A stretch of 33,119 bases of DNA from Escherichia phage ET-SD-TH. The notes below the pieces were generated by a model. It was not told the origin of the DNA. It worked only from the letters and a program-made list of their open reading frames with translations, and did no database searches. Positions 253-27,949 of this stretch are shown here, one piece after another (position 1 is the stretch's first letter; each line of letters starts with the position of its first letter). Where the stretch lies: sequence record OR992646, one strand, 5' to 3'. The position numbers and the translations under genes were made by a program.

Positions 253-955
253 TACGATAACCTTTGCCAGAAATCCAAATTGCAATTTCTGTGGCAACAC
301 CAATGTCAAGACTGGTTTTTGTAGTGGCAGCAAAGTTAGCCAGTTCGTAAAGTATTTCATCACGCGCTTCACATTCATTTAGGTCGGCTTCTAACTGCTC
401 ATCGTTCAATATCGCAGTATCGCGAGGCACAACAATTCCTGCTGGTTGTACTTCGTGAGGATTAACAATGCGGTAAGAAATGATGTCACCGTCACTGCCA
501 GTATGTGACCATGCAAAATATTCTGCTCTGTCATTATTGATATGAAGCGGGCTAGGATTCCGGTATTTGACTTCAACAATTGCGTCACTATCCACAGGAC
601 ATTCACCGCCAGCCCATTCAATCCAGCCGTCAGCGTCGGCAGCAATTGCGGTTTTTCCTGCCCCTGTGTCAGCCGTGTAGTGTTCAGTTGAAACCTGGTA
701 CGGTCGCAGTTCTTTACTGGCTGCCAGCGCGGCTTCGTACTGGTCGCTGGTGATNNNNNNNNNNNNNNNNNNNNNNNNNNNNNNNNNNNNNNNNNNNNNN
801 NNNNNNNNNNNNNNNNNNNNNNNNNNNNNNNNNNNNNNNNNNNNNAGTTCACGGTCTGAATCTTGCGTAATAGCCTTCACTCCTTCCGGCCATCCGCCAC
901 GTTTCGGCAGTTCTTCAACCAGTATTTGCAGCAGGGTTTTATTTGATGTGTTCAT
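245..955 (-). CDS. hypothetical acidic protein (236 aa; 91 nt masked internally)
   Basis: Long minus-strand ORF immediately downstream of the tail D gene; protein-like composition; no motif I can recognise. Residues from 755-845 are unknown. Confidence 0.45.
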   Translation of the reverse strand: MNTSNKTLLQILVEELPKRGGWPEGVKAITQDSDREXXXXXXXXXXXXXXXXXXXXXXXXXXXXXXXITSDQYEAALAASKELRPYQVSTEHYTADTGAGKTAIAADADGWIEWAGGECPVDSDAIVEVKYRNPSPLHINNDRAEYFAWSHTGSDGDIISYRIVNPHEVQPAGIVVPRDTAILNDEQLEADLNECEARDEILYELANFAATTKTSLDIGVATEIAIWISGKGYRKQ

Positions 956-5626: not shown

Positions 5627-6133
5627 TTACATCGCCAGCGCGGAACGGATGGCGGCCAGGGTGTCTACACCGTTGATGATGCGCACCATGTTTTCCACGT
5701 CGATTTCGTGGATGGTCTTTCCGTTATGCTGCTGCTTGAAATAGTTCAGGCTGACAGTCACGTTAAGGGAACTTAATTCCCCAGGCGTCCAGGTGCCTGG
5801 CTCCATGCTGGTGATTTTGCCGCGCATGTTCATGACAACGCCTTTCACGCTGCCATCATAGGATTCCAGCGCACCGCGAAACGTCAGCGGAACGCTTGCG
5901 CCTTCTGACAGGCCAAACAGCGCCAACACGTCAGAATCATAGGCACGCAGCGCAAAACTTGCCTCCAGCTTTTCCATGCCCAACGTCACATCAATGGGCG
6001 CGTCCATGCCGCCTGCGCGGAATTCTTCGGTTTGCAGGGTTAAGGTGGGCGGCGTGACGCTCTCCACCTGGCCCGCGTAACCACGGCCATCAACAAATAA
6101 GTTGATGTTTTTCAAAACGTCACGTGCGGCCAT
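5627..6133 (-). CDS. phage tail tube protein (P2 FII-like)
   Basis: 168-aa [46 protein letters not shown]..., matching the contractile-tail tube family; its ATG (6133-6131) overlaps the sheath stop by 1 nt (TAATG). Confidence 0.85.
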   Translation of the reverse strand: MAARDVLKNINLFVDGRGYAGQVESVTPPTLTLQTEEFRAGGMDAPIDVTLGMEKLEASFALRAYDSDVLALFGLSEGASVPLTFRGALESYDGSVKGVVMNMRGKITSMEPGTWTPGELSSLNVTVSLNYFKQQHNGKTIHEIDVENMVRIINGVDTLAAIRSALAM

Positions 6134-7557
6134 TATTCGAATACCTCACTAATATAATCGTTGGTCAACTGGCTGCGGAAGATAATGTGTTCAGCCGGAT
6201 AAACAGGCGTGAAATCAAAATCAAAGTATACCTTACCGTCAGCGATCTGGTCAGCAGTATTTAAGTCAGGGTCAGCCCAACACGTGCCGCCAAGAATTGC
6301 GCCAAGGCTCACCAGGTTGCGCAGGTACGCGTTCACGCCTTCAATCACGTCATTGACGTATTGTTTGGTGATGCCACGGTCTACGGCCCACAGGTGTGCA
6401 CGCAGCAGGCTGTCATTGATGATGTCAGCCGTGCGAACAACGCACAGGAACGCCCATTTCGGATCGCTGGAAGTGGTGCGGTTGCCCCACAGGCGGAAAC
6501 CATCCTGGCGAATGATGGTGGTGACTTCGTTTTCGTTCAGCAGGTTTGCACGGCTGGACGTATCACCCAGGGTGAAATCAATGGTTCTGGCCGTGCCCTG
6601 AATGCCATAGATTTCCTGGTTTGATGGTGACCACCAGAAACCGCGCTCGTTGTCGATGCGGGCAATCAGGCCAGCCACGCGCGGCGATGCCCAATCAGTA
6701 ATCGTGGTGCCATCTTCGTCAAGCACCAGCACTTTTGGGTCAACCACATAAACGCGCTTGCTGCCAAAGTCTTTGCGGTAGGCGATGGCGTCAGCGTCGT
6801 TGGTGTTAGGGCCGTCAGCGATGATGACAGCACGCAGGCGGTTGGCGATGCCAAGCAGTTCAGAAACCACGGCATTGGCTGCAACGCCAACGGATGCGGT
6901 TGCAGTTGCGCCGGTGCCGTTTCCGCCAGTGATGGCTACGGTTGGCGCGCTGGTGTAACCCATGCCGGAATTGGTGACGGTGATTTTGGTGATGACTCCA
7001 CCAACCACAGTGGCTTCCGCAGTTGCGCCAGAACCGCCGCCACCAGTCAGTGTGACTGTCGGTGCCGTGGTGTAGCCGCTGCCGCCATTGCCAATGGTGA
7101 TAGCTGTGACGCCATCCTGAACGCGGGTATGCGTGAATCCAGGCACGCACAGAATGCGAGGCGAGTAGCCAACAACGGATTCAGCGCCAAGCAGTGCGTG
7201 AACGCCTTCATATTTGCCGGTTGATGCGTTAACACCTCCCATGATGTTGGCCAGTGTTGCTGCTTCTTCTTCTCCTTCTTCAACGCGCACAACGATAACT
7301 ACCGCGCCGATCTGGTCCAGGATGGCATCCAGTGCTTTTGGCAGTGTGCCTTCACCGGTTCCAAGTAGGTCCAGTTTAGCCGCTTCTCGCTGGCTGCCAG
7401 CAATCAGGGTAGGGGTGTTAATCGGGAATGCGTCAGGGTCGGCATTCGGCGCTGTGCCTACAATGCCAATGACGCTGGATTTAACGGTTTGAATGACGCG
7501 TGAACCGGAATCAATTTCCAGCACCTCCACGCCATGTAAGAACTCAGTACCTGCCAT
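6133..7557 (-). CDS. phage tail sheath protein (P2 FI-like) with internal repeat-containing insertion
   Basis: 474 aa from ATG 7557-7555 to TAA 6135-6133; N-terminus [54 protein letters not shown] and C-terminal ...[26 protein letters not shown]... follow the FI sheath pattern. The supplied ORF continues into the N run only as an artefact. Confidence 0.9.
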
Positions 7558-7673: not shown

Positions 7674-10600
7674 AAAGGCGACAAATCAGTAACNNNNNNN
7701 NNNNNNNNNNNNNNNNNNNNNNNNNNNNNNNNNNNNNNNNNNNNNNNNNNNNNNNNNNNNNNNNNNNNNNNNNNNNNNNNNNNNNNNNNNNNNNNNNNNN
7801 NNNNNNNNNNNNNNNNNNNNNNNNNNNNNNNNNNNNNNNNNNNNNNNNNNNNNNNNNNNNNNNNNNNNNNNNNNNNNNNNNNNNNNNNNNNNNNNNNNNN
7901 NNNNNNNNNNNNNNNNNNNNNNNNNNNNNNNNNNNNNNNNNNNNNNNNNNNNNNNNNNNNNNNNNNNNNNNNNNNNNNNNNNNNNNNNNNNNNNNNNNNN
8001 NNNNNNNNNNNNNNNNNNNNNNNNNNNNNNNNNNNNNNNNNNNNNNNNNNNNNNNNNNNNNNNNNNNNNNNNNNNNNNNNNNNNNNNNNNNNNNNNNNNN
8101 NNNNNNNNNNNNNNNNNNNNNNNNNNNNNNNNNNNNNNNNNNNNNNNNNNNNNNNNNNNNNNNNNNNNNNNNNNNNNNNNNNNNNNNNNNNNNNNNNNNN
8201 NNNNNNNNNNNNNNNNNNNNNNNNNNNNNNNNNNNNNNNNNNNNNNNNNNNNNNNNNNNNNNNNNNNNNNNNNNNNNNNNNNNNNNNNNNNNNNNNNNNN
8301 NNNNNNNNNNNNNNNNNNNNNNNNNNNNNNNNNNNNNNNNNNNNNNNNNNNNNNNNNNNNNNNNNNNNNNNNNNNNNNNNNNNNNNNNNNNNNNNNNNNN
8401 NNNNNNNNNNNNNNNNNNNNNNNNNNNNNNNNNNNNNNNNNNNNNNNNNNNNNNNNNNNNNNNNNNNNNNNNNNNNNNNNNNNNNNNNNNNNNNNNNNNN
8501 NNNNNNNNNNNNNNNNNNNNNNNNNNNNNNNNNNNNNNNNNNNNNNNNNNNNNNNNNNNNNNNNNNNNNNNNNNNNNNNNNNNNNNNNNNNNNNNNNNNN
8601 NNNNNNNNNNNNNNNNNNNNNNNNNNNNNNNNNNNNNNNNNNNNNNNNNNNNNNNNNNNNNNNNNNNNNNNNNNNNNNNNNNNNNNNNNNNNNNNNNNNN
8701 NNNNNNNNNNNNNNNNNNNNNNNNNNNNNNNNNNNNNNNNNNNNNNNNNNNNNNNNNNNNNNNNNNNNNNNNNNNNNNNNNNNNNNNNNNNNNNNNNNNN
8801 NNNNNNNNNNNNNNNNNNNNNNNNNNNNNNNNNNNNNNNNNNNNNNNNNNNNNNNNNNNNNNNNNNNNNNNNNNNNNNNNNNNNNNNNNNNNNNNNNNNN
8901 NNNNNNNNNNNNNNNNNNNNNNNNNNNNNNNNNNNNNNNNNNNNNNNNNNNNNNNNNNNNNNNNNNNNNNNNNNNNNNNNNNNNNNNNNNNNNNNNNNNN
9001 NNNNNNNNNNNNNNNNNNNNNNNNNNNNNNNNNNNNNNNNNNNNNNNNNNNNNNNNNNNNNNNNNNNNNNNNNNNNNNNNNNNNNNNNNNNNNNNNNNNN
9101 NNNNNNNNNNNNNNNNNNNNNNNNNNNNNNNNNNNNNNNNNNNNNNNNNNNNNNNNNNNNNNNNNNNNNNNNNNNNNNNNNNNNNNNNNNNNNNNNNNNN
9201 NNNNNNNNNNNNNNNNNNNNNNNNNNNNNNNNNNNNNNNNNNNNNNNNNNNNNNNNNNNNNNNNNNNNNNNNNNNNNNNNNNNNNNNNNNNNNNNNNNNN
9301 NNNNNNNNNNNNNNNNNNNNNNNNNNNNNNNNNNNNNNNNNNNNNNNNNNNNNNNNNNNNNNNNNNNNNNNNNNNNNNNNNNNNNNNNNNNNNNNNNNNN
9401 NNNNNNNNNNNNNNNNNNNNNNNNNNNNNNNNNNNNNNNNNNNNNNNNNNNNNNNNNNNNNNNNNNNNNNNNNNNNNNNNNNNNNNNNNNNNNNNNNNNN
9501 NNNNNNNNNNNNNNNNNNNNNNNNNNNNNNNNNNNNNNNNNNNNNNNNNNNNNNNNNNNNNNNNNNNNNNNNNNNNNNNNNNNNNNNNNNNNNNNNNNNN
9601 NNNNNNNNNNNNNNNNNNNNNNNNNNNNNNNNNNNNNNNNNNNNNNNNNNNNNNNNNNNNNNNNNNNNNNNNNNNNNNNNNNNNNNNNNNNNNNNNNNNN
9701 NNNNNNNNNNNNNNNNNNNNNNNNNNNNNNNNNNNNNNNNNNNNNNNNNNNNNNNNNNNNNNNNNNNNNNNNNNNNNNNNNNNNNNNNNNNNNNNNNNNN
9801 NNNNNNNNNNNNNNNNNNNNNNNNNNNNNNNNNNNNNNNNNNNNNNNNNNNNNNNNNNNNNNNNNNNNNNNNNNNNNNNNNNNNNNNNNNNNNNNNNNNN
9901 NNNNNNNNNNNNNNNNNNNNNNNNNNNNNNNNNNNNNNNNNNNNNNNNNNNNNNNNNNNNNNNNNNNNNNNNNNNNNNNNNNNNNNNNNNNNNNNNNNNN
10001 NNNNNNNNNNNNNNNNNNNNNNNNNNNNNNNNNNNNNNNNNNNNNNNNNNNNNNNNNNNNNNNNNNNNNNNNNNNNNNNNNNNNNNNNNNNNNNNNNNNN
10101 NNNNNNNNNNNNNNNNNNNNNNNNNNNNNNNNNNNNNNNNNNNNNNNNNNNNNNNNNNNNNNNNNNNNNNNNNNNNNNNNNNNNNNNNNNNNNNNNNNNN
10201 NNNNNNNNNNNNNNNNNNNNNNNNNNNNNNNNNNNNNNNNNNNNNNNNNNNNNNNNNNNNNNNNNNNNNNNNNNNNNNNNNNNNNNNNNNNNNNNNNNNN
10301 NNNNNNNNNNNNNNNNNNNNNNNNNNNNNNNNNNNNNNNNNNNNNNNNNNNNNNNNNNNNNNNNNNNNNNNNNNNNNNNNNNNNNNNNNNNNNNNNNNNN
10401 NNNNNNNNNNNNNNNNNNNNNNNNNNNNNNNNNNNNNNNNNNNNNNNNNNNNNNNNNNNNNNNNNNNNNNNNNNNNNNNNNNNNNNNNNNNNNNNNNNNN
10501 NNNNNNNNNNNNNNNNNNNNNNNNNNNNNNNNNNNNNNNNNNNNNNNNNNNNNNNNNNNNNNNNNNNNNNNNNNNNNNNNNNNNNNNNNNNNNNNNNNNN

Positions 10601-12750
10601 NNNNNNNNNNNNNNNNNNNNNNNNNNNNNNNNNNNNNNNNNNNNNNNNNNNNNNNNNNNNNNNNNNNNNNNNNNNNNNNNNNNNNNNNNNNNNNNNNNNN
10701 NNNNNNNNNNNNNNNNNNNNNNNNNNNNNNNNNNNNNNNNNNNNNNNNNNNNNNNNNNNNNNNNNNNNNNNNNNNNNNNNNNNNNNNNNNNNNNNNNNNN
10801 NNNNNNNNNNNNNNNNNNNNNNNNNNNNNNNNNNNNNNNNNNNNNNNNNNNNNNNNNNNNNNNNNNNNNNNNNNNNNNNNNNNNNNNNNNNNNNNNNNNN
10901 NNNNNNNNNNNNNNNNNNNNNNNNNNNNNNNNNNNNNNNNNNNNNNNNNNNNNNNNNNNNNNNNNNNNNNNNNNNNNNNNNNNNNNNNNNNNNNNNNNNN
11001 NNNNNNNNNNNNNNNNNNNNNNNNNNNNNNNNNNNNNNNNNNNNNNNNNNNNNNNNNNNNNNNNNNNNNNNNNNNNNNNNNNNNNNNNNNNNNNNNNNNN
11101 NNNNNNNNNNNNNNNNNNNNNNNNNNNNNNNNNNNNNNNNNNNNNNNNNNNNNNNNNNNNNNNNNNNNNNNNNNNNNNNNNNNNNNNNNNNNNNNNNNNN
11201 NNNNNNNNNNNNNNNNNNNNNNNNNNNNNNNNNNNNNNNNNNNNNNNNNNNNNNNNNNNNNNNNNNNNNNNNNNNNNNNNNNNNNNNNNNNNNNNNNNNN
11301 NNNNNNNNNNNNNNNNNNNNNNNNNNNNNNNNNNNNNNNNNNNNNNNNNNNNNNNNNNNNNNNNNNNNNNNNNNNNNNNNNNNNNNNNNNNNNNNNNNNN
11401 NNNNNNNNNNNNNNNNNNNNNNNNNNNNNNNNNNNNNNNNNNNNNNNNNNNNNNNNNNNNNNNNNNNNNNNNNNNNNNNNNNNNNNNNNNNNNNNNNNNN
11501 NNNNNNNNNNNNNNNNNNNNNNNNNNNNNNNNNNNNNNNNNNNNNNNNNNNNNNNNNNNNNNNNNNNNNNNNNNNNNNNNNNNNNNNNNNNNNNNNNNNN
11601 NNNNNNNNNNNNNNNNNNNNNNNNNNNNNNNNNNNNNNNNNNNNNNNNNNNNNNNNNNNNNNNNNNNNNNNNNNNNNNNNNNNNNNNNNNNNNNNNNNNN
11701 NNNNNNNNNNNNNNNNNNNNNNNNNNNNNNNNNNNNNNNNNNNNNNNNNNNNNNNNNNNNNNNNNNNNNNNNNNNNNNNNNNNNNNNNNNNNNNNNNNNN
11801 NNNNNNNNNNNNNNNNNNNNNNNNNNNNNNNNNNNNNNNNNNNNNNNNNNNNNNNNNNNNNNNNNNNNNNNNNNNNNNNNNNNNNNNNNNNNNNNNNNNN
11901 NNNNNNNNNNNNNNNNNNNNNNNNNNNNNNNNNNNNNNNNNNNNNNNNNNNNNNNNNNNNNNNNNNNNNNNNNNNNNNNNNNNNNNNNNNNNNNNNNNNN
12001 NNNNNNNNNNNNNNNNNNNNNNNNNNNNNNNNNNNNNNNNNNNNNNNNNNNNNNNNNNNNNNNNNNNNNNNNNNNNNNNNNNNNNNNNNNNNNNNNNNNN
12101 NNNNNNNNNNNNNNNNNNNNNNNNNNNNNNNNNNNNNNNNNNNNNNNNNNNNNNNNNNNNNNNNNNNNNNNNNNNNNNNNNNNNNNNNNNNNNNNNNNNN
12201 NNNNNNNNNNNNNNNNNNNNNNNNNNNNNNNNNNNNNNNNNNNNNNNNNNNNNNNNNNNNNNNNNNNNNNNNNNNNNNNNNNNNNNNNNNNNNNNNNNNN
12301 NNNNNNNNNNNNNNNNNNNNNNNNNNNNNNNNNNNNNNNNNNNNNNNNNNNNNNNNNNNNNNNNNNNNNNNNNNNNNNNNNNNNNNNNNNNNNNNNNNNN
12401 NNNNNNNNNNNNNNNNNNNNNNNNNNNNNNNNNNNNNNNNNNNNNNNNNNNNNNNNNNNNNNNNNNNNNNNNNNNNNNNNNNNNNNNNNNNNNNNNNNNN
12501 NNNNNNNNNNNNNNNNNNNNNNNNNNNNNNNNNNNNNNNNNNNNNNNNNNNNNNNNNNNNNNNNNNNNNNNNNNNNNNNNNNNNNNNNNNNNNNNNNNNN
12601 NNNNNNNNNNNNNNNNNNNNNNNNNNNNNNNNNNNNNNNNNNNNNNNNNNNNNNNNNNNNNNNNNNNNNNNNNNNNNNNNNNNNNNNNNNNNNNNNNNNN
12701 NNNNNNNNNNNNNNNNNNNNNNNNNNNNNNNNNNNNNNNNNNNNNNNNNN

Positions 12751-12947: not shown

Positions 12948-15900
12948 NNNNNNNNNNNNNNNNNNNNNNNNNNNNNNNNNNNNNNNNNNNNNNNNNNNNN
13001 NNNNNNNNNNNNNNNNNNNNNNNNNNNNNNNNNNNNNNNNNNNNNNNNNNNNNNNNNNNNNNNNNNNNNNNNNNNNNNNNNNNNNNNNNNNNNNNNNNNN
13101 NNNNNNNNNNNNNNNNNNNNNNNNNNNNNNNNNNNNNNNNNNNNNNNNNNNNNNNNNNNNNNNNNNNNNNNNNNNNNNNNNNNNNNNNNNNNNNNNNNNN
13201 NNNNNNNNNNNNNNNNNNNNNNNNNNNNNNNNNNNNNNNNNNNNNNNNNNNNNNNNNNNNNNNNNNNNNNNNNNNNNNNNNNNNNNNNNNNNNNNNNNNN
13301 NNNNNNNNNNNNNNNNNNNNNNNNNNNNNNNNNNNNNNNNNNNNNNNNNNNNNNNNNNNNNNNNNNNNNNNNNNNNNNNNNNNNNNNNNNNNNNNNNNNN
13401 NNNNNNNNNNNNNNNNNNNNNNNNNNNNNNNNNNNNNNNNNNNNNNNNNNNNNNNNNNNNNNNNNNNNNNNNNNNNNNNNNNNNNNNNNNNNNNNNNNNN
13501 NNNNNNNNNNNNNNNNNNNNNNNNNNNNNNNNNNNNNNNNNNNNNNNNNNNNNNNNNNNNNNNNNNNNNNNNNNNNNNNNNNNNNNNNNNNNNNNNNNNN
13601 NNNNNNNNNNNNNNNNNNNNNNNNNNNNNNNNNNNNNNNNNNNNNNNNNNNNNNNNNNNNNNNNNNNNNNNNNNNNNNNNNNNNNNNNNNNNNNNNNNNN
13701 NNNNNNNNNNNNNNNNNNNNNNNNNNNNNNNNNNNNNNNNNNNNNNNNNNNNNNNNNNNNNNNNNNNNNNNNNNNNNNNNNNNNNNNNNNNNNNNNNNNN
13801 NNNNNNNNNNNNNNNNNNNNNNNNNNNNNNNNNNNNNNNNNNNNNNNNNNNNNNNNNNNNNNNNNNNNNNNNNNNNNNNNNNNNNNNNNNNNNNNNNNNN
13901 NNNNNNNNNNNNNNNNNNNNNNNNNNNNNNNNNNNNNNNNNNNNNNNNNNNNNNNNNNNNNNNNNNNNNNNNNNNNNNNNNNNNNNNNNNNNNNNNNNNN
14001 NNNNNNNNNNNNNNNNNNNNNNNNNNNNNNNNNNNNNNNNNNNNNNNNNNNNNNNNNNNNNNNNNNNNNNNNNNNNNNNNNNNNNNNNNNNNNNNNNNNN
14101 NNNNNNNNNNNNNNNNNNNNNNNNNNNNNNNNNNNNNNNNNNNNNNNNNNNNNNNNNNNNNNNNNNNNNNNNNNNNNNNNNNNNNNNNNNNNNNNNNNNN
14201 NNNNNNNNNNNNNNNNNNNNNNNNNNNNNNNNNNNNNNNNNNNNNNNNNNNNNNNNNNNNNNNNNNNNNNNNNNNNNNNNNNNNNNNNNNNNNNNNNNNN
14301 NNNNNNNNNNNNNNNNNNNNNNNNNNNNNNNNNNNNNNNNNNNNNNNNNNNNNNNNNNNNNNNNNNNNNNNNNNNNNNNNNNNNNNNNNNNNNNNNNNNN
14401 NNNNNNNNNNNNNNNNNNNNNNNNNNNNNNNNNNNNNNNNNNNNNNNNNNNNNNNNNNNNNNNNNNNNNNNNNNNNNNNNNNNNNNNNNNNNNNNNNNNN
14501 NNNNNNNNNNNNNNNNNNNNNNNNNNNNNNNNNNNNNNNNNNNNNNNNNNNNNNNNNNNNNNNNNNNNNNNNNNNNNNNNNNNNNNNNNNNNNNNNNNNN
14601 NNNNNNNNNNNNNNNNNNNNNNNNNNNNNNNNNNNNNNNNNNNNNNNNNNNNNNNNNNNNNNNNNNNNNNNNNNNNNNNNNNNNNNNNNNNNNNNNNNNN
14701 NNNNNNNNNNNNNNNNNNNNNNNNNNNNNNNNNNNNNNNNNNNNNNNNNNNNNNNNNNNNNNNNNNNNNNNNNNNNNNNNNNNNNNNNNNNNNNNNNNNN
14801 NNNNNNNNNNNNNNNNNNNNNNNNNNNNNNNNNNNNNNNNNNNNNNNNNNNNNNNNNNNNNNNNNNNNNNNNNNNNNNNNNNNNNNNNNNNNNNNNNNNN
14901 NNNNNNNNNNNNNNNNNNNNNNNNNNNNNNNNNNNNNNNNNNNNNNNNNNNNNNNNNNNNNNNNNNNNNNNNNNNNNNNNNNNNNNNNNNNNNNNNNNNN
15001 NNNNNNNNNNNNNNNNNNNNNNNNNNNNNNNNNNNNNNNNNNNNNNNNNNNNNNNNNNNNNNNNNNNNNNNNNNNNNNNNNNNNNNNNNNNNNNNNNNNN
15101 NNNNNNNNNNNNNNNNNNNNNNNNNNNNNNNNNNNNNNNNNNNNNNNNNNNNNNNNNNNNNNNNNNNNNNNNNNNNNNNNNNNNNNNNNNNNNNNNNNNN
15201 NNNNNNNNNNNNNNNNNNNNNNNNNNNNNNNNNNNNNNNNNNNNNNNNNNNNNNNNNNNNNNNNNNNNNNNNNNNNNNNNNNNNNNNNNNNNNNNNNNNN
15301 NNNNNNNNNNNNNNNNNNNNNNNNNNNNNNNNNNNNNNNNNNNNNNNNNNNNNNNNNNNNNNNNNNNNNNNNNNNNNNNNNNNNNNNNNNNNNNNNNNNN
15401 NNNNNNNNNNNNNNNNNNNNNNNNNNNNNNNNNNNNNNNNNNNNNNNNNNNNNNNNNNNNNNNNNNNNNNNNNNNNNNNNNNNNNNNNNNNNNNNNNNNN
15501 NNNNNNNNNNNNNNNNNNNNNNNNNNNNNNNNNNNNNNNNNNNNNNNNNNNNNNNNNNNNNNNNNNNNNNNNNNNNNNNNNNNNNNNNNNNNNNNNNNNN
15601 NNNNNNNNNNNNNNNNNNNNNNNNNNNNNNNNNNNNNNNNNNNNNNNNNNNNNNNNNNNNNNNNNNNNNNNNNNNNNNNNNNNNNNNNNNNNNNNNNNNN
15701 NNNNNNNNNNNNNNNNNNNNNNNNNNNNNNNNNNNNNNNNNNNNNNNNNNNNNNNNNNNNNNNNNNNNNNNNNNNNNNNNNNNNNNNNNNNNNNNNNNNN
15801 NNNNNNNNNNNNNNNNNNNNNNNNNNNNNNNNNNNNNNNNNNNNNNNNNNNNNNNNNNNNNNNNNNNNNNNNNNNNNNNNNNNNNNNNNNNNNNNNNNNN

Positions 15901-18793
15901 NNNNNNNNNNNNNNNNNNNNNNNNNNNNNNNNNNNNNNNNNNNNNNNNNNNNNNNNNNNNNNNNNNNNNNNNNNNNNNNNNNNNNNNNNNNNNNNNNNNN
16001 NNNNNNNNNNNNNNNNNNNNNNNNNNNNNNNNNNNNNNNNNNNNNNNNNNNNNNNNNNNNNNNNNNNNNNNNNNNNNNNNNNNNNNNNNNNNNNNNNNNN
16101 NNNNNNNNNNNNNNNNNNNNNNNNNNNNNNNNNNNNNNNNNNNNNNNNNNNNNNNNNNNNNNNNNNNNNNNNNNNNNNNNNNNNNNNNNNNNNNNNNNNN
16201 NNNNNNNNNNNNNNNNNNNNNNNNNNNNNNNNNNNNNNNNNNNNNNNNNNNNNNNNNNNNNNNNNNNNNNNNNNNNNNNNNNNNNNNNNNNNNNNNNNNN
16301 NNNNNNNNNNNNNNNNNNNNNNNNNNNNNNNNNNNNNNNNNNNNNNNNNNNNNNNNNNNNNNNNNNNNNNNNNNNNNNNNNNNNNNNNNNNNNNNNNNNN
16401 NNNNNNNNNNNNNNNNNNNNNNNNNNNNNNNNNNNNNNNNNNNNNNNNNNNNNNNNNNNNNNNNNNNNNNNNNNNNNNNNNNNNNNNNNNNNNNNNNNNN
16501 NNNNNNNNNNNNNNNNNNNNNNNNNNNNNNNNNNNNNNNNNNNNNNNNNNNNNNNNNNNNNNNNNNNNNNNNNNNNNNNNNNNNNNNNNNNNNNNNNNNN
16601 NNNNNNNNNNNNNNNNNNNNNNNNNNNNNNNNNNNNNNNNNNNNNNNNNNNNNNNNNNNNNNNNNNNNNNNNNNNNNNNNNNNNNNNNNNNNNNNNNNNN
16701 NNNNNNNNNNNNNNNNNNNNNNNNNNNNNNNNNNNNNNNNNNNNNNNNNNNNNNNNNNNNNNNNNNNNNNNNNNNNNNNNNNNNNNNNNNNNNNNNNNNN
16801 NNNNNNNNNNNNNNNNNNNNNNNNNNNNNNNNNNNNNNNNNNNNNNNNNNNNNNNNNNNNNNNNNNNNNNNNNNNNNNNNNNNNNNNNNNNNNNNNNNNN
16901 NNNNNNNNNNNNNNNNNNNNNNNNNNNNNNNNNNNNNNNNNNNNNNNNNNNNNNNNNNNNNNNNNNNNNNNNNNNNNNNNNNNNNNNNNNNNNNNNNNNN
17001 NNNNNNNNNNNNNNNNNNNNNNNNNNNNNNNNNNNNNNNNNNNNNNNNNNNNNNNNNNNNNNNNNNNNNNNNNNNNNNNNNNNNNNNNNNNNNNNNNNNN
17101 NNNNNNNNNNNNNNNNNNNNNNNNNNNNNNNNNNNNNNNNNNNNNNNNNNNNNNNNNNNNNNNNNNNNNNNNNNNNNNNNNNNNNNNNNNNNNNNNNNNN
17201 NNNNNNNNNNNNNNNNNNNNNNNNNNNNNNNNNNNNNNNNNNNNNNNNNNNNNNNNNNNNNNNNNNNNNNNNNNNNNNNNNNNNNNNNNNNNNNNNNNNN
17301 NNNNNNNNNNNNNNNNNNNNNNNNNNNNNNNNNNNNNNNNNNNNNNNNNNNNNNNNNNNNNNNNNNNNNNNNNNNNNNNNNNNNNNNNNNNNNNNNNNNN
17401 NNNNNNNNNNNNNNNNNNNNNNNNNNNNNNNNNNNNNNNNNNNNNNNNNNNNNNNNNNNNNNNNNNNNNNNNNNNNNNNNNNNNNNNNNNNNNNNNNNNN
17501 NNNNNNNNNNNNNNNNNNNNNNNNNNNNNNNNNNNNNNNNNNNNNNNNNNNNNNNNNNNNNNNNNNNNNNNNNNNNNNNNNNNNNNNNNNNNNNNNNNNN
17601 NNNNNNNNNNNNNNNNNNNNNNNNNNNNNNNNNNNNNNNNNNNNNNNNNNNNNNNNNNNNNNNNNNNNNNNNNNNNNNNNNNNNNNNNNNNNNNNNNNNN
17701 NNNNNNNNNNNNNNNNNNNNNNNNNNNNNNNNNNNNNNNNNNNNNNNNNNNNNNNNNNNNNNNNNNNNNNNNNNNNNNNNNNNNNNNNNNNNNNNNNNNN
17801 NNNNNNNNNNNNNNNNNNNNNNNNNNNNNNNNNNNNNNNNNNNNNNNNNNNNNNNNNNNNNNNNNNNNNNNNNNNNNNNNNNNNNNNNNNNNNNNNNNNN
17901 NNNNNNNNNNNNNNNNNNNNNNNNNNNNNNNNNNNNNNNNNNNNNNNNNNNNNNNNNNNNNNNNNNNNNNNNNNNNNNNNNNNNNNNNNNNNNNNNNNNN
18001 NNNNNNNNNNNNNNNNNNNNNNNNNNNNNNNNNNNNNNNNNNNNNNNNNNNNNNNNNNNNNNNNNNNNNNNNNNNNNNNNNNNNNNNNNNNNNNNNNNNN
18101 NNNNNNNNNNNNNNNNNNNNNNNNNNNNNNNNNNNNNNNNNNNNNNNNNNNNNNNNNNNNNNNNNNNNNNNNNNNNNNNNNNNNNNNNNNNNNNNNNNNN
18201 NNNNNNNNNNNNNNNNNNNNNNNNNNNNNNNNNNNNNNNNNNNNNNNNNNNNNNNNNNNNNNNNNNNNNNNNNNNNNNNNNNNNNNNNNNNNNNNNNNNN
18301 NNNNNNNNNNNNNNNNNNNNNNNNNNNNNNNNNNNNNNNNNNNNNNNNNNNNNNNNNNNNNNNNNNNNNNNNNNNNNNNNNNNNNNNNNNNNNNNNNNNN
18401 NNNNNNNNNNNNNNNNNNNNNNNNNNNNNNNNNNNNNNNNNNNNNNNNNNNNNNNNNNNNNNNNNNNNNNNNNNNNNNNNNNNNNNNNNNNNNNNNNNNN
18501 NNNNNNNNNNNNNNNNNNNNNNNNNNNNNNNNNNNNNNNNNNNNNNNNNNNNNNNNNNNNNNNNNNNNNNNNNNNNNNNNNNNNNNNNNNNNNNNNNNNN
18601 NNNNNNNNNNNNNNNNNNNNNNNNNNNNNNNNNNNNNNNNNNNNNNNNNNNNNNNNNNNNNNNNNNNNNNNNNNNNNNNNNNNNNNNNNNNNNNNNNNNN
18701 NNNNNNNNNNNNNNNNNNNNNNNNNNNNNNNNNNNNNNNNNNNNNNNNNNNNNNNNNNNNNNNNNNNNNNNNNNNNNNNNNNNNNNNNNNNNN

Positions 18794-23404: not shown

Positions 23405-24064
23405 TTAATGTCGCCTTATCTAATGCTAAAATCAATTTTGATTATCCACGCACAACGCGAATNNNNNNNNNNNNNNNNNNNNNNNNNNNNNNNNNNNNNN
23501 NNNNNNNNNNNNNNNNNNNNNNNNNNNNNNNNNNNNNNNNNNNNNNNNNNNNNNNNNNNNNNNNNNNNNNNNNNNNNNNNNNNNNNNNNNNNNNNNNNNN
23601 NNNNNNNNNNNNNNNNNNNNNNNNNNNNNNNNNNNNNNNNNNNNNNNNNNNNNNNNNNNNNNNNNNNNNNNNNNNNNNNNNNNNNNNNNNNNNNNNNNNN
23701 NNNNNNNNNNNNNNNNNNNNNNNNNNNNNNNNNNNNNNNNNNNNNNNNNNNNNNNNNNNNNNNNNNNNNNNNNNNNNNNNNNNNNNNNNNNNNNNNNNNN
23801 NNNNNNNNNNNNNNNNNNNNNNNNNNNNNNNNNNNNNNNNNNNNNNNNNNNNNNNNNNNNNNNNNNNNNNNNNNNNNNNNNNNNNNNNNNNNNNNNNNNN
23901 NNNNNNNNNNNNNNNNNNNNNNNNNNNNNNNNNNNNNNNNNNNNNNNNNNNNNNNNNNNNNNNNNNNNNNNNNNNNNNNNNNNNNNNNNNNNNNNNNNNN
24001 NNNNNNNNNNNNNNNNNNNNNNNNNNNNNNNNNNNNNNNNNNNNNNNNNNNNNNNNNNNNNNNN

Positions 24065-26273: not shown

Positions 26274-27017
26274 NNNNNNNNNNNNNNNNNNNNNNNNNNN
26301 NNNNNNNNNNNNNNNNNNNNNNNNNNNNNNNNNNNNNNNNNNNNNNNNNNNNNNNNNNNNNNNNNNNNNNNNNNNNNNNNNNNNNNNNNNNNNNNNNNNN
26401 NNNNNNNNNNNNNNNNNNNNNNNNNNNNNNNNNNNNNNNNNNNNNNNNNNNNNNNNNNNNNNNNNNNNNNNNNNNNNNNNNNNNNNNNNNNNNNNNNNNN
26501 NNNNNNNNNNNNNNNNNNNNNNNNNNNNNNNNNNNNNNNNNNNNNNNNNNNNNNNNNNNNNNNNNNNNNNNNNNNNNNNNNNNNNNNNNNNNNNNNNNNN
26601 NNNNNNNNNNNNNNNNNNNNNNNNNNNNNNNNNNNNNNNNNNNNNNNNNNNNNNNNNNNNNNNNNNNNNNNNNNNNNNNNNNNNNNNNNNNNNNNNNNNN
26701 NNNNNNNNNNNNNNNNNNNNNNNNNNNNNNNNNNNNNNNNNNNNNNNNNNNNNNNNNNNNNNNNNNNNNNNNNNNNNNNNNNNNNNNNNNNNNNNNNNNN
26801 NNNNNNNNNNNNNNNNNNNNNNNNNNNNNNNNNNNNNNNNNNNNNNNNNNNNNNNNNNNNNNNNNNNNNNNNNNNNNNNNNNNNNNNNNNNNNNNNNNNN
26901 NNNNNNNNNNNNNNNNNNNNNNNNNNNNNNNNNNNNNNNNNNNNNNNNNNNNNNNNNNNNNNNNNNNNNNNNNNNNNNNNNNNNNNNNNNNNNNNNNNNN
27001 NNNNNNNNNNNNNNNNN

Positions 27018-27232: not shown

Positions 27233-27949
27233 NNNNNNNNNNNNNNNNNNNNNNNNNNNNNNNNNNNNNNNNNNNNNNNNNNNNNNNNNNNNNNNNNNNN
27301 NNNNNNNNNNNNNNNNNNNNNNNNNNNNNNNNNNNNNNNNNNNNNNNNNNNNNNNNNNNNNNNNNNNNNNNNNNNNNNNNNNNNNNNNNNNNNNNNNNNN
27401 NNNNNNNNNNNNNNNNNNNNNNNNNNNNNNNNNNNNNNNNNNNNNNNNNNNNNNNNNNNNNNNNNNNNNNNNNNNNNNNNNNNNNNNNNNNNNNNNNNNN
27501 NNNNNNNNNNNNNNNNNNNNNNNNNNNNNNNNNNNNNNNNNNNNNNNNNNNNNNNNNNNNNNNNNNNNNNNNNNNNNNNNNNNNNNNNNNNNNNNNNNNN
27601 NNNNNNNNNNNNNNNNNNNNNNNNNNNNNNNNNNNNNNNNNNNNNNNNNNNNNNNNNNNNNNNNNNNNNNNNNNNNNNNNNNNNNNNNNNNNNNNNNNNN
27701 NNNNNNNNNNNNNNNNNNNNNNNNNNNNNNNNNNNNNNNNNNNNNNNNNNNNNNNNNNNNNNNNNNNNNNNNNNNNNNNNNNNNNNNNNNNNNNNNNNNN
27801 NNNNNNNNNNNNNNNNNNNNNNNNNNNNNNNNNNNNNNNNNNNNNNNNNNNNNNNNNNNNNNNNNNNNNNNNNNNNNNNNNNNNNNNNNNNNNNNNNNNN
27901 NNNNNNNNNNNNNNNNNNNNNNNNNNNNNNNNNNNNNNNNNNNNNNNNN

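Follow-up and report, generated by a model that had tools for sequence, protein, structure and literature searches.

The sheath of the R-type pyocin represents the minimal form of a contractile sheath protein, consisting of handshake and protrusion domains, and in other contractile systems the protrusion domain carries one or two further domains while the mesh is kept (PMC8195476; PMC9230969). Such added domains lie away from the tube (PMC9230969). Domain I of T4 gp18, its outermost domain, is a six-stranded barrel that protrudes outward and makes no gp18-gp18 contacts; it contacts the baseplate and the retracted long fibres, and the substitutions G106S, S175F and A178V inhibit fibre retraction (PMC3004832). 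In Vibrio phage XM1, the sheath protein gp6 carries a single outward-pointing insertion domain (InD) in its N-terminal (protrusion) domain (PMC10457771). Here we describe an inserted domain in the tail sheath of Escherichia phage ET-SD-TH, whose gene is located in a stretch of 33,119 nucleotides (sequence record OR992646) that as a whole is termed the window. A preliminary description of this DNA had proposed that the sheath contains an unusual insertion of approximately 85 amino acids (aa), built from two Gly/Thr/Ala-rich repeats, which may decorate the tail or mediate adhesion.

A folded insertion in the protrusion domain

The assignment of the gene as a tail sheath is well founded. Judged by gathering score, the 474-aa product matches PF04984, the protrusion or 'subtilisin-like' domain (85.9 bits, cut-off 31.4), and PF17482, the C-terminal handshake domain (86.7 bits, cut-off 26.9); PF22671 matches at aa 29-92. 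The protein also matches phrog_23 tail sheath (E 8.4e-131), and among solved structures it is closest to PA0622, the R-type pyocin sheath (3j9q, E 1.1e-92). Both Pfam domains, end-to-end collinearity with a solved sheath, and neighbouring genes for tube, chaperone and tape measure place it among the P2 FI/R-pyocin-type sheaths, and the core of the protein is the minimal sheath of this type from a Jilinvirus-type (Iiscvirinae) myophage.

Relative to P2 FI and the R-pyocin sheath, the segment under consideration is a true insertion of approximately 83 aa (Table 1). In the alignment with PA0622, aa 5-142 of the ET-SD-TH protein correspond to pyocin residues 2-134 and aa 226-473 to residues 135-383. 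In the alignment with P2 FI, aa 4 to approximately 141 correspond to residues 2 to approximately 139, and aa 224-472 to residues 139-389. Both proteins place the insert at the same point, just after ...PRILCVPG, as had been proposed with reference to the P2 FI pattern, and the peptide originally singled out (aa 156-223, window 7092..6889) falls within the interval of 6860-7120 then given for it. The match of the intact sheath to PF04984 is split into two stretches. When the 83 residues are deleted in silico, the match becomes continuous (aa 114-279 against profile positions 1-168) and rises to 94.1 bits, with the same layout as that of P2 FI (113-279), and we therefore conclude that the insert interrupts this domain. 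It is located in a strand-to-helix loop of the protrusion domain.

Table 1. Sheath gene, inserted domain and adjacent tube gene in the window.
Feature	Position	Strand	Description
Tail sheath gene	6133..7557	minus	474 aa + stop; P2 FI / R-pyocin PA0622 type
Sheath core, N-terminal part	7132..7557	minus	aa 1-142: N-terminal arm, Gp18_domIII_N-like aa 29-92, first ~29 positions of PF04984 (aa 114-142)
Inserted domain, 83 aa	6883..7131	minus	aa 143-225; predicted six-stranded beta-barrel of two repeats; splits PF04984 at ~profile position 30
Repeat 1	7006..7110	minus	aa 150-184 (V150-V184); modelled strands aa 148-160, 167-171, 179-185
Repeat 2	6889..6993	minus	aa 189-223 (I189-V223); modelled strands aa 188-196, 206-210, 215-225
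Sheath core, C-terminal part	6136..6882	minus	aa 226-474: rest of PF04984 (aa 226-362), PF17482 'handshake' (aa 363-465)
Tail tube gene, 168 aa	5627..6133	minus	directly downstream of sheath gene; PF04985 Phage_tube FII, E 4.3e-57

The insert contains the two copies of a G-x-G-Y-T-x-A-P-T-V...T-G-G-x-G-x-G-A-T-A-x-A unit that had been noticed initially. Internal alignment reveals identity at 22 of 35 residues between the repeats, and the local score under BLOSUM62 is 120, compared with 37.1 +/- 6.7 (maximum 73) in 5000 shuffles that preserved the Gly/Thr-rich composition. The similarity is thus well beyond chance. Only 66 of 105 DNA bases are shared by the in-register codons for aa 149-183 and 188-222, which indicates that the duplication is not recent. 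In each repeat of approximately 39 residues, a long strand leads through a G-S-G-Y loop to a short A-P-T-V strand, which a G-G-G-G loop connects to a long G-A-T-A-x-A strand, and both repeats carry all of the motifs (G-x-G-Y, A-P-x-V and G-G..G-A.A.A).

Glycine and threonine each account for 23% of the insert, and four of its 83 residues are charged. Positions that are invariant across the sheath family hold Gly, Ala, Pro or Tyr, with the addition of one Arg (R145) at the N-terminal edge of the insert; in the wider family of related modules described below they are likewise Gly, Ala, Pro and Tyr, with one near-invariant Tyr per repeat. No other conserved polar or charged residue was found in the alignments of either family, and the variable positions appear to be occupied mostly by Thr, Ser and Asn, with very few charges. 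The alternation of conserved Ala residues in the long strands suggests a small barrel core of Ala, Val, Ile and Tyr.

Structure prediction strongly favours a compact domain over a linker. AlphaFold2 modelling of the insert alone with 50 diverse family members yielded a predicted local distance difference test score (pLDDT) of 94.6 and a predicted template modelling score (pTM) of 0.82. The model has six strands arranged long-short-long twice, contains no helix, and forms turns at the G-S-G-Y and G-G-G-G motifs. When the full-length sheath was modelled with 56 homologues, the same strands were obtained, with block-mean pLDDT values of 73-92 across the insert. We therefore regard the insert, with high confidence in the models, as a folded six-stranded beta-barrel, in agreement with the domain character suggested at the outset. 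On structure comparison, the best match to the model is T4 gp18 (3foa), with a score of 6.2 (root-mean-square deviation 2.5 A over 72 residues, 24% identity), followed by the T4 gp18PR fragment (3fo8, 5.8), which comprises only Domains I and II, and by the sheath of Klebsiella phage KP1 (9ev2, 4.7). All others, including filamin and AftD, score below 4. A Foldseek search of the model against all PDB chains returned nothing at E<=1e-3, and there is no close solved homologue.

Conservation in sheaths and a large module family

Whether the segment belongs to the conserved core of most homologues has a divided answer. It is not part of a universal sheath core, but all 120 of the best sheath homologues carry it. 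The lengths of these homologues fall into two clusters, of 468-479 aa with one barrel and 557-562 aa with two barrels (four repeats), and the core is unchanged between them. One barrel is present at the same site in the sheaths of Xanthomonas phage FoX3, Acinetobacter phage Alexa and Burkholderia phage Mica, and the sheath of Klebsiella phage KA2-1 has two tandem barrels there. Identity between the two KA2-1 barrels is no more than 52%, which marks this doubling as old; the two-barrel subgroup could have arisen either by an old duplication or by a second acquisition. One 468-aa homologue is shorter by approximately 10 residues that form the third strand of repeat 1 (...TGGAGTGANAGKVTAV...), and represents either a naturally trimmed barrel or an assembly error. 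A tblastn search of the phage collection with the insert found only nine near-identical records, each with 73% query coverage; the low-complexity filter of BLAST masks the Gly/Thr-rich insert, and such a search is therefore of no use for surveying distribution.

In comparison with the sheath gene of Escherichia phage HeidiAbel (Bas97), the ratio of nonsynonymous to synonymous divergence (dN/dS) reaches 0.21 in the insert, as against 0.07 in the N-terminal part and approximately 0 in the C-terminal part. The identity of the insert is below that of the C-terminal core in all but two of 54 homologues, and below the value for the N-terminal part in all but four. The insert is therefore maintained under purifying selection but is less constrained than the core. 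Synonymous divergence (dS) is uneven along the gene: it is 0.37 in aa 1-142 and 0.33 in the insert but drops to 0.115 in aa 226-474. This suggests that the sheath gene is a mosaic with a recombination breakpoint close to the insert's 3' end. A separate candidate, an overlapping gene in a 96-aa alternative-frame open reading frame (ORF; 6860..7150, minus strand), was rejected: dS in the insert is close to that in the N-terminal part of the core and is not reduced, and constraint of this segment by a second reading frame is thereby ruled out.

An extra outer domain on a sheath is ordinary, and the description of the insert as unusual was not borne out, given that the pyocin sheath is the minimal form to which other systems add (PMC8195476; PMC9230969) and that T4 gp18 and XM1 gp6 provide solved examples of such additions (PMC3004832; PMC10457771). 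The insert is a fixed feature of the whole phage group. The case of phage ep3 has already been tabulated, its sheath (475 aa) being listed without further description as a two-domain 'type 2' protein in a survey of 112 modelled sheaths (PMC9230969).

Beyond sheaths, the insert belongs to a very large and uncurated module family whose members occur in phage tail fibres, in proteins of the baseplate, neck and hub, and as long tandem arrays. Searched on its own, the insert hits segments within many PHROGs, most strongly phrog_701 (3e-19) and phrog_19630 (1e-15) and also phrog_460, phrog_708 and phrog_5342; the annotations of the matched PHROGs are virion structural protein, tail fibre, baseplate wedge, hub-lysozyme and 'head closure' or neck. 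A word-indexed search yielded 106 small proteins or fragments made of the same repeats, with 35-85% local identity. Among 1.84 billion cluster representatives (clusters at 50% identity), a 50-member profile picked out 24,710 proteins at E<=1e-3, of which 14,200 also pass E<=1e-10, and the top matches are proteins of 1,000-7,000 residues with 5-35 matched stretches each. Foldseek against predicted viral structures (BFVD) returned 44 matches at E<=1e-3, with 26-55% identity, that include tail fibres, a short tail fibre, baseplate wedge and hub-plus-lysozyme proteins, a P22 gp10-like protein, an endosialidase and cyanophage structural proteins. By its two tandem repeats and its profile match, the insert is a member of what can be described as an unnamed 'GSGY...APTV...GGGG...GATA' double-repeat barrel family.

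This family has neither a Pfam nor an NCBIfam model, and the insert has no match in NCBIfam. Pfam scans of ten multi-copy members gave essentially no annotation and no informative co-domains, exact cluster look-up of ten gave no informative names, and the motif strings are absent from the searchable literature. Two groups of matches deserve separate mention. In short Pseudomonas entries (122-139 aa) from the word-indexed search, named 'phage tail tube protein', the two-repeat barrel precedes no more than the C-terminal ~70 positions of PF16460, the lambda-like tube family. This looks like replacement of the tube protein's N-terminal half by the barrel, or like miscalled gene starts. The BFVD matches A0A3G5AH46 and A0A3G5AH06 carry the same barrel with 35-46% identity and are assigned to Sylvanvirus sp., which we take to be a metagenome-assembled giant virus; these barrels could reflect transfer from phages or bacteria, or assembly contamination.

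Possible roles of the barrel

We consider the insert to be an accessory outer barrel domain of the contractile sheath whose most likely job is that of a generic surface module, and we assign this reading a probability of roughly 0.65. By analogy with T4 Domain I and other sheath additions, the barrel would point away from the tube and the handshake mesh. The tail exterior would then be covered by barrels, one per subunit, that take no active part in contraction and could provide weak, multivalent contacts of low specificity with polysaccharide on the host surface or with fibres of the phage itself when these are folded back. The proposal that the barrel studs the outside of the tail follows from the position of other added domains away from the tube and from the outward orientation of T4 Domain I and the XM1 InD; the presence of either one or two barrels at the same site, with an unchanged core, indicates that there is room there. 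A generic function is favoured because the module also occurs on fibres, baseplates, necks and arrays, because it has no conserved polar patch, and because its copy number varies. With R145 set aside, only Gly, Ala, Pro and Tyr are invariant in the insert, a pattern more in keeping with a scaffold than with a specific binding site. Maintenance of the insert under weaker constraint than the core also agrees with this reading. The role in tail decoration or adhesion that had been put forward initially is plausible and is the reading that we prefer.

Several observations weigh against this reading. Surface exposure and the lack of contacts between subunits are inferred by analogy, and the missing polar patch could equally mean that the barrel has no ligand at all. 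The T4 parallel also has its weaknesses: the modelled insert lacks the alpha-helix of T4 Domain I, and PF22639 (Gp18_dom_I), a profile to which T4 gp18 itself scores 126 bits, is matched at E<=10 neither by the insert nor by any of 50 members of its family. A hidden Markov model (HMM) of the insert family gave no significant match to T4 gp18, and HHalign comparison of the family with the T4 Domain I sequence was likewise not significant. With a profile of 106 T4-family Domain I sequences, HHalign returned a probability of 2.6%, again not significant, in an alignment that does place the G-x-G-Y strand-loop in register. As the HMM and profile-profile comparisons are not significant, we do not claim sequence homology to T4 Domain I.

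A bolder proposal, which we hold only tentatively and think unlikely, is that the barrel is an ancient mobile module of virion surfaces, evolutionarily the same as T4 Domain I, that was grafted independently into sheath loops and into fibres, baseplates and necks, and that retains real glycan or fibre binding centred on the G-S-G-Y loops. The T4 substitution G106S lies in one such loop (G-S-N-Y). If this proposal were correct, the sheath of the small Iiscvirinae myophages would be an active surface for adhesion or fibre parking rather than a passive spring.

The barrel might instead be a specific landing pad on which lateral fibres dock against the sheath, or a baseplate contact in the first ring. 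The closest solved folds are indeed gp18 chains that contain Domain I, in which the three substitutions that inhibit fibre retraction are located (PMC3004832). One of these, G106 (mature numbering), is the Gly of the first loop, T-P-G-S-N-Y, and is the counterpart of the conserved G-S-G-Y loop in the insert family. Moreover, the Jilinvirus phage Bas97 is reported to have a lateral and a short tail fibre in a T-even-like manner (PMC11990801). However, the same module is present in tail fibres, the baseplate wedge, the hub, the neck and proteins with up to 35 matched stretches, where a fibre-docking role makes no sense. Apart from Gly, Ala, Pro and Tyr there is no conserved surface patch, the sequence does not establish homology to T4 Domain I, and the fibre genes of the window are masked by runs of N. 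We therefore consider a docking function unlikely.

We are similarly doubtful that the barrels serve as stabilizers, touching their neighbours within or between rings and so cementing the extended, metastable sheath. Such a role was put forward for sheath domain II of Staphylococcus phage 812. It is discussed for additional sheath domains generally (PMC9230969). Conservation of the insert across the whole phage group under purifying selection is consistent with it. Nevertheless, the copy number changes from one barrel to two without a compensating change in the core, and the insert shows faster evolution than the core, although tight co-evolution is the usual pattern for interface domains. In T4 Domain I, the nearest domain in structure, contacts between gp18 subunits are absent (PMC3004832).

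There is little reason to expect a specific lectin, that is, a carbohydrate-binding module for O-antigen that would turn the whole sheath surface into an adhesin. The close relative Bas97 is fully dependent on the O16 O-antigen, but this dependence is already explained by its tail fibres (PMC11990801). The near-invariant Tyr of each repeat would suit a lectin, yet nearly the same domain occurs in phages whose hosts (Xanthomonas, Acinetobacter, Burkholderia and Klebsiella) have surface glycans that are unrelated. Finally, the idea that the segment is no domain but a low-complexity Gly/Thr/Ala-rich linker, an artefact of assembly or annotation, or sequence covering an overlapping gene, to which its composition, the mechanically listed alternative-frame ORF and the masking of much of the segment by the BLAST filter might point, can be set aside as extremely improbable in view of the high-confidence six-strand model, a repeat score far above that of composition-matched shuffles, retention in frame in more than 120 homologues and thousands of other proteins, and the values of dN/dS and dS reported above.

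Genomic context and comparison with known systems

Downstream of the tube gene are genes for a tail assembly chaperone (PF10109) and then a tape measure protein (PF10145), and the gene order is therefore the P2-like FI-FII-E-T. The sheath gene is 92.6-95% identical at the nucleotide level to those of Escherichia phages vB_EcoM_ECO1230-10 (95%), ep3, ECOO78, Alux-21 and HeidiAbel (Bas97) and of Salmonella phage PT1. These relatives are myophages of approximately 41-44 kb in the genus Jilinvirus, subfamily Iiscvirinae (PMC11990801). The genome is accordingly of the Jilinvirus type and is not obviously a prophage, a setting that the preliminary description had implied.

Six runs of N mask approximately 13 kb of the window (755-845, 7694-12750, 12948-18793, 23463-24064, 26274-27017 and 27233-27949). 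They include the stretch just upstream of the sheath gene, where the relatives encode tail fibres, a fibre assembly protein and baseplate genes, and they produce spurious giant 'ORFs' in the ORF list. Public annotation of this region is also problematic: in Bas97 (PQ850606.1, Bas97_0018 and Bas97_0019) the sheath was deposited as 'hypothetical protein', and the FII-type tube gene beside it is mislabelled 'head closure', as it is in several RefSeq relatives (records NC_027995, NC_025430 and NC_041926).

The value of the present analysis is mostly annotational and comparative, in that it provides a domain map for Jilinvirus and Iiscvirinae sheaths, several of which are deposited only as 'tail protein'. 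What it adds are the precise boundaries of the insertion, a confident model of a six-stranded barrel, a structural link to T4 gp18 Domain I at a different insertion site, and recognition of the module as a very large family that has no curated model or close solved structure. Were the barrel dispensable, the loop would offer a natural site for engineering or display on the tails of small myophages and on tailocins.

With P2 FI and PA0622, the ET-SD-TH sheath shares a collinear and homologous core (37-41% identity to P2 FI), the same Pfam layout once the insert is removed, and the same order of FI, FII, chaperone and tape measure genes. In the two reference sheaths the next helix follows directly on ...PR(I/L)L-x-(V/A)PG, whereas ET-SD-TH has 83 extra residues there. 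Like XM1, ET-SD-TH is a small myophage with one accessory domain inserted in the sheath protrusion domain (PMC10457771). The XM1 InD resembles FliD D3, however, and the fold of the ET-SD-TH insert is not similar to that domain.

The distribution of the module across virion proteins is of the kind seen for immunoglobulin (Ig)-like decoration domains such as those of T4 Hoc and the Big_2 and FN3 additions, which are promiscuous, non-essential-looking beta modules of approximately 80-90 residues, present in many virion proteins and often in tandem. Ig-like additions have been proposed to confer weak adhesion to surface carbohydrates (PMC9230969). The ET-SD-TH insert differs from them in fold, as it has neither an Ig-like beta-sandwich nor any match to an Ig-type Pfam family.

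Closest in structure is T4 Domain I, which comprises residues 98-188 (PDB 3FOA/3FO8; residues 96-188 in PF22639) and is the only sheath addition with genetic evidence of function, namely in fibre retraction; the link to it is testable. Domain I has two G-x-N-Y loops, T-P-G-S-N-Y and P-T-G-K-N-Y, each after an I-x-I-type strand, which recall the two G-S-G-Y repeats of the insert, and a two-fold echo is visible in gene 18 at residues ~100-155 (...IDYTISTPGSNYA... and ...IKKINIPTGKNYA...). The sites of insertion differ. HHalign, applied to the sheath families in full and to T4 against the family without its insert, gave an alignment of some confidence for the C-terminal half alone, and we therefore mapped the sites from Pfam coordinates. 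In T4, Gp18_domIII_N covers residues 24-82 and position 1 of PF04984 falls at residue 348, with Domains II and I filling the gap and Domain I nested in Domain II. In ET-SD-TH, Gp18_domIII_N (aa 29-92) and PF04984 (from aa 114) have no insertion between them, Domain II (PF17481) is absent, and the barrel lies approximately 29 residues further on, inside PF04984. On the evidence of the models, the ET-SD-TH insert and T4 Domain I likely share the same fold and are possibly remote homologues; if they are related, the difference in sites implies that the two barrels entered the protrusion domain independently.
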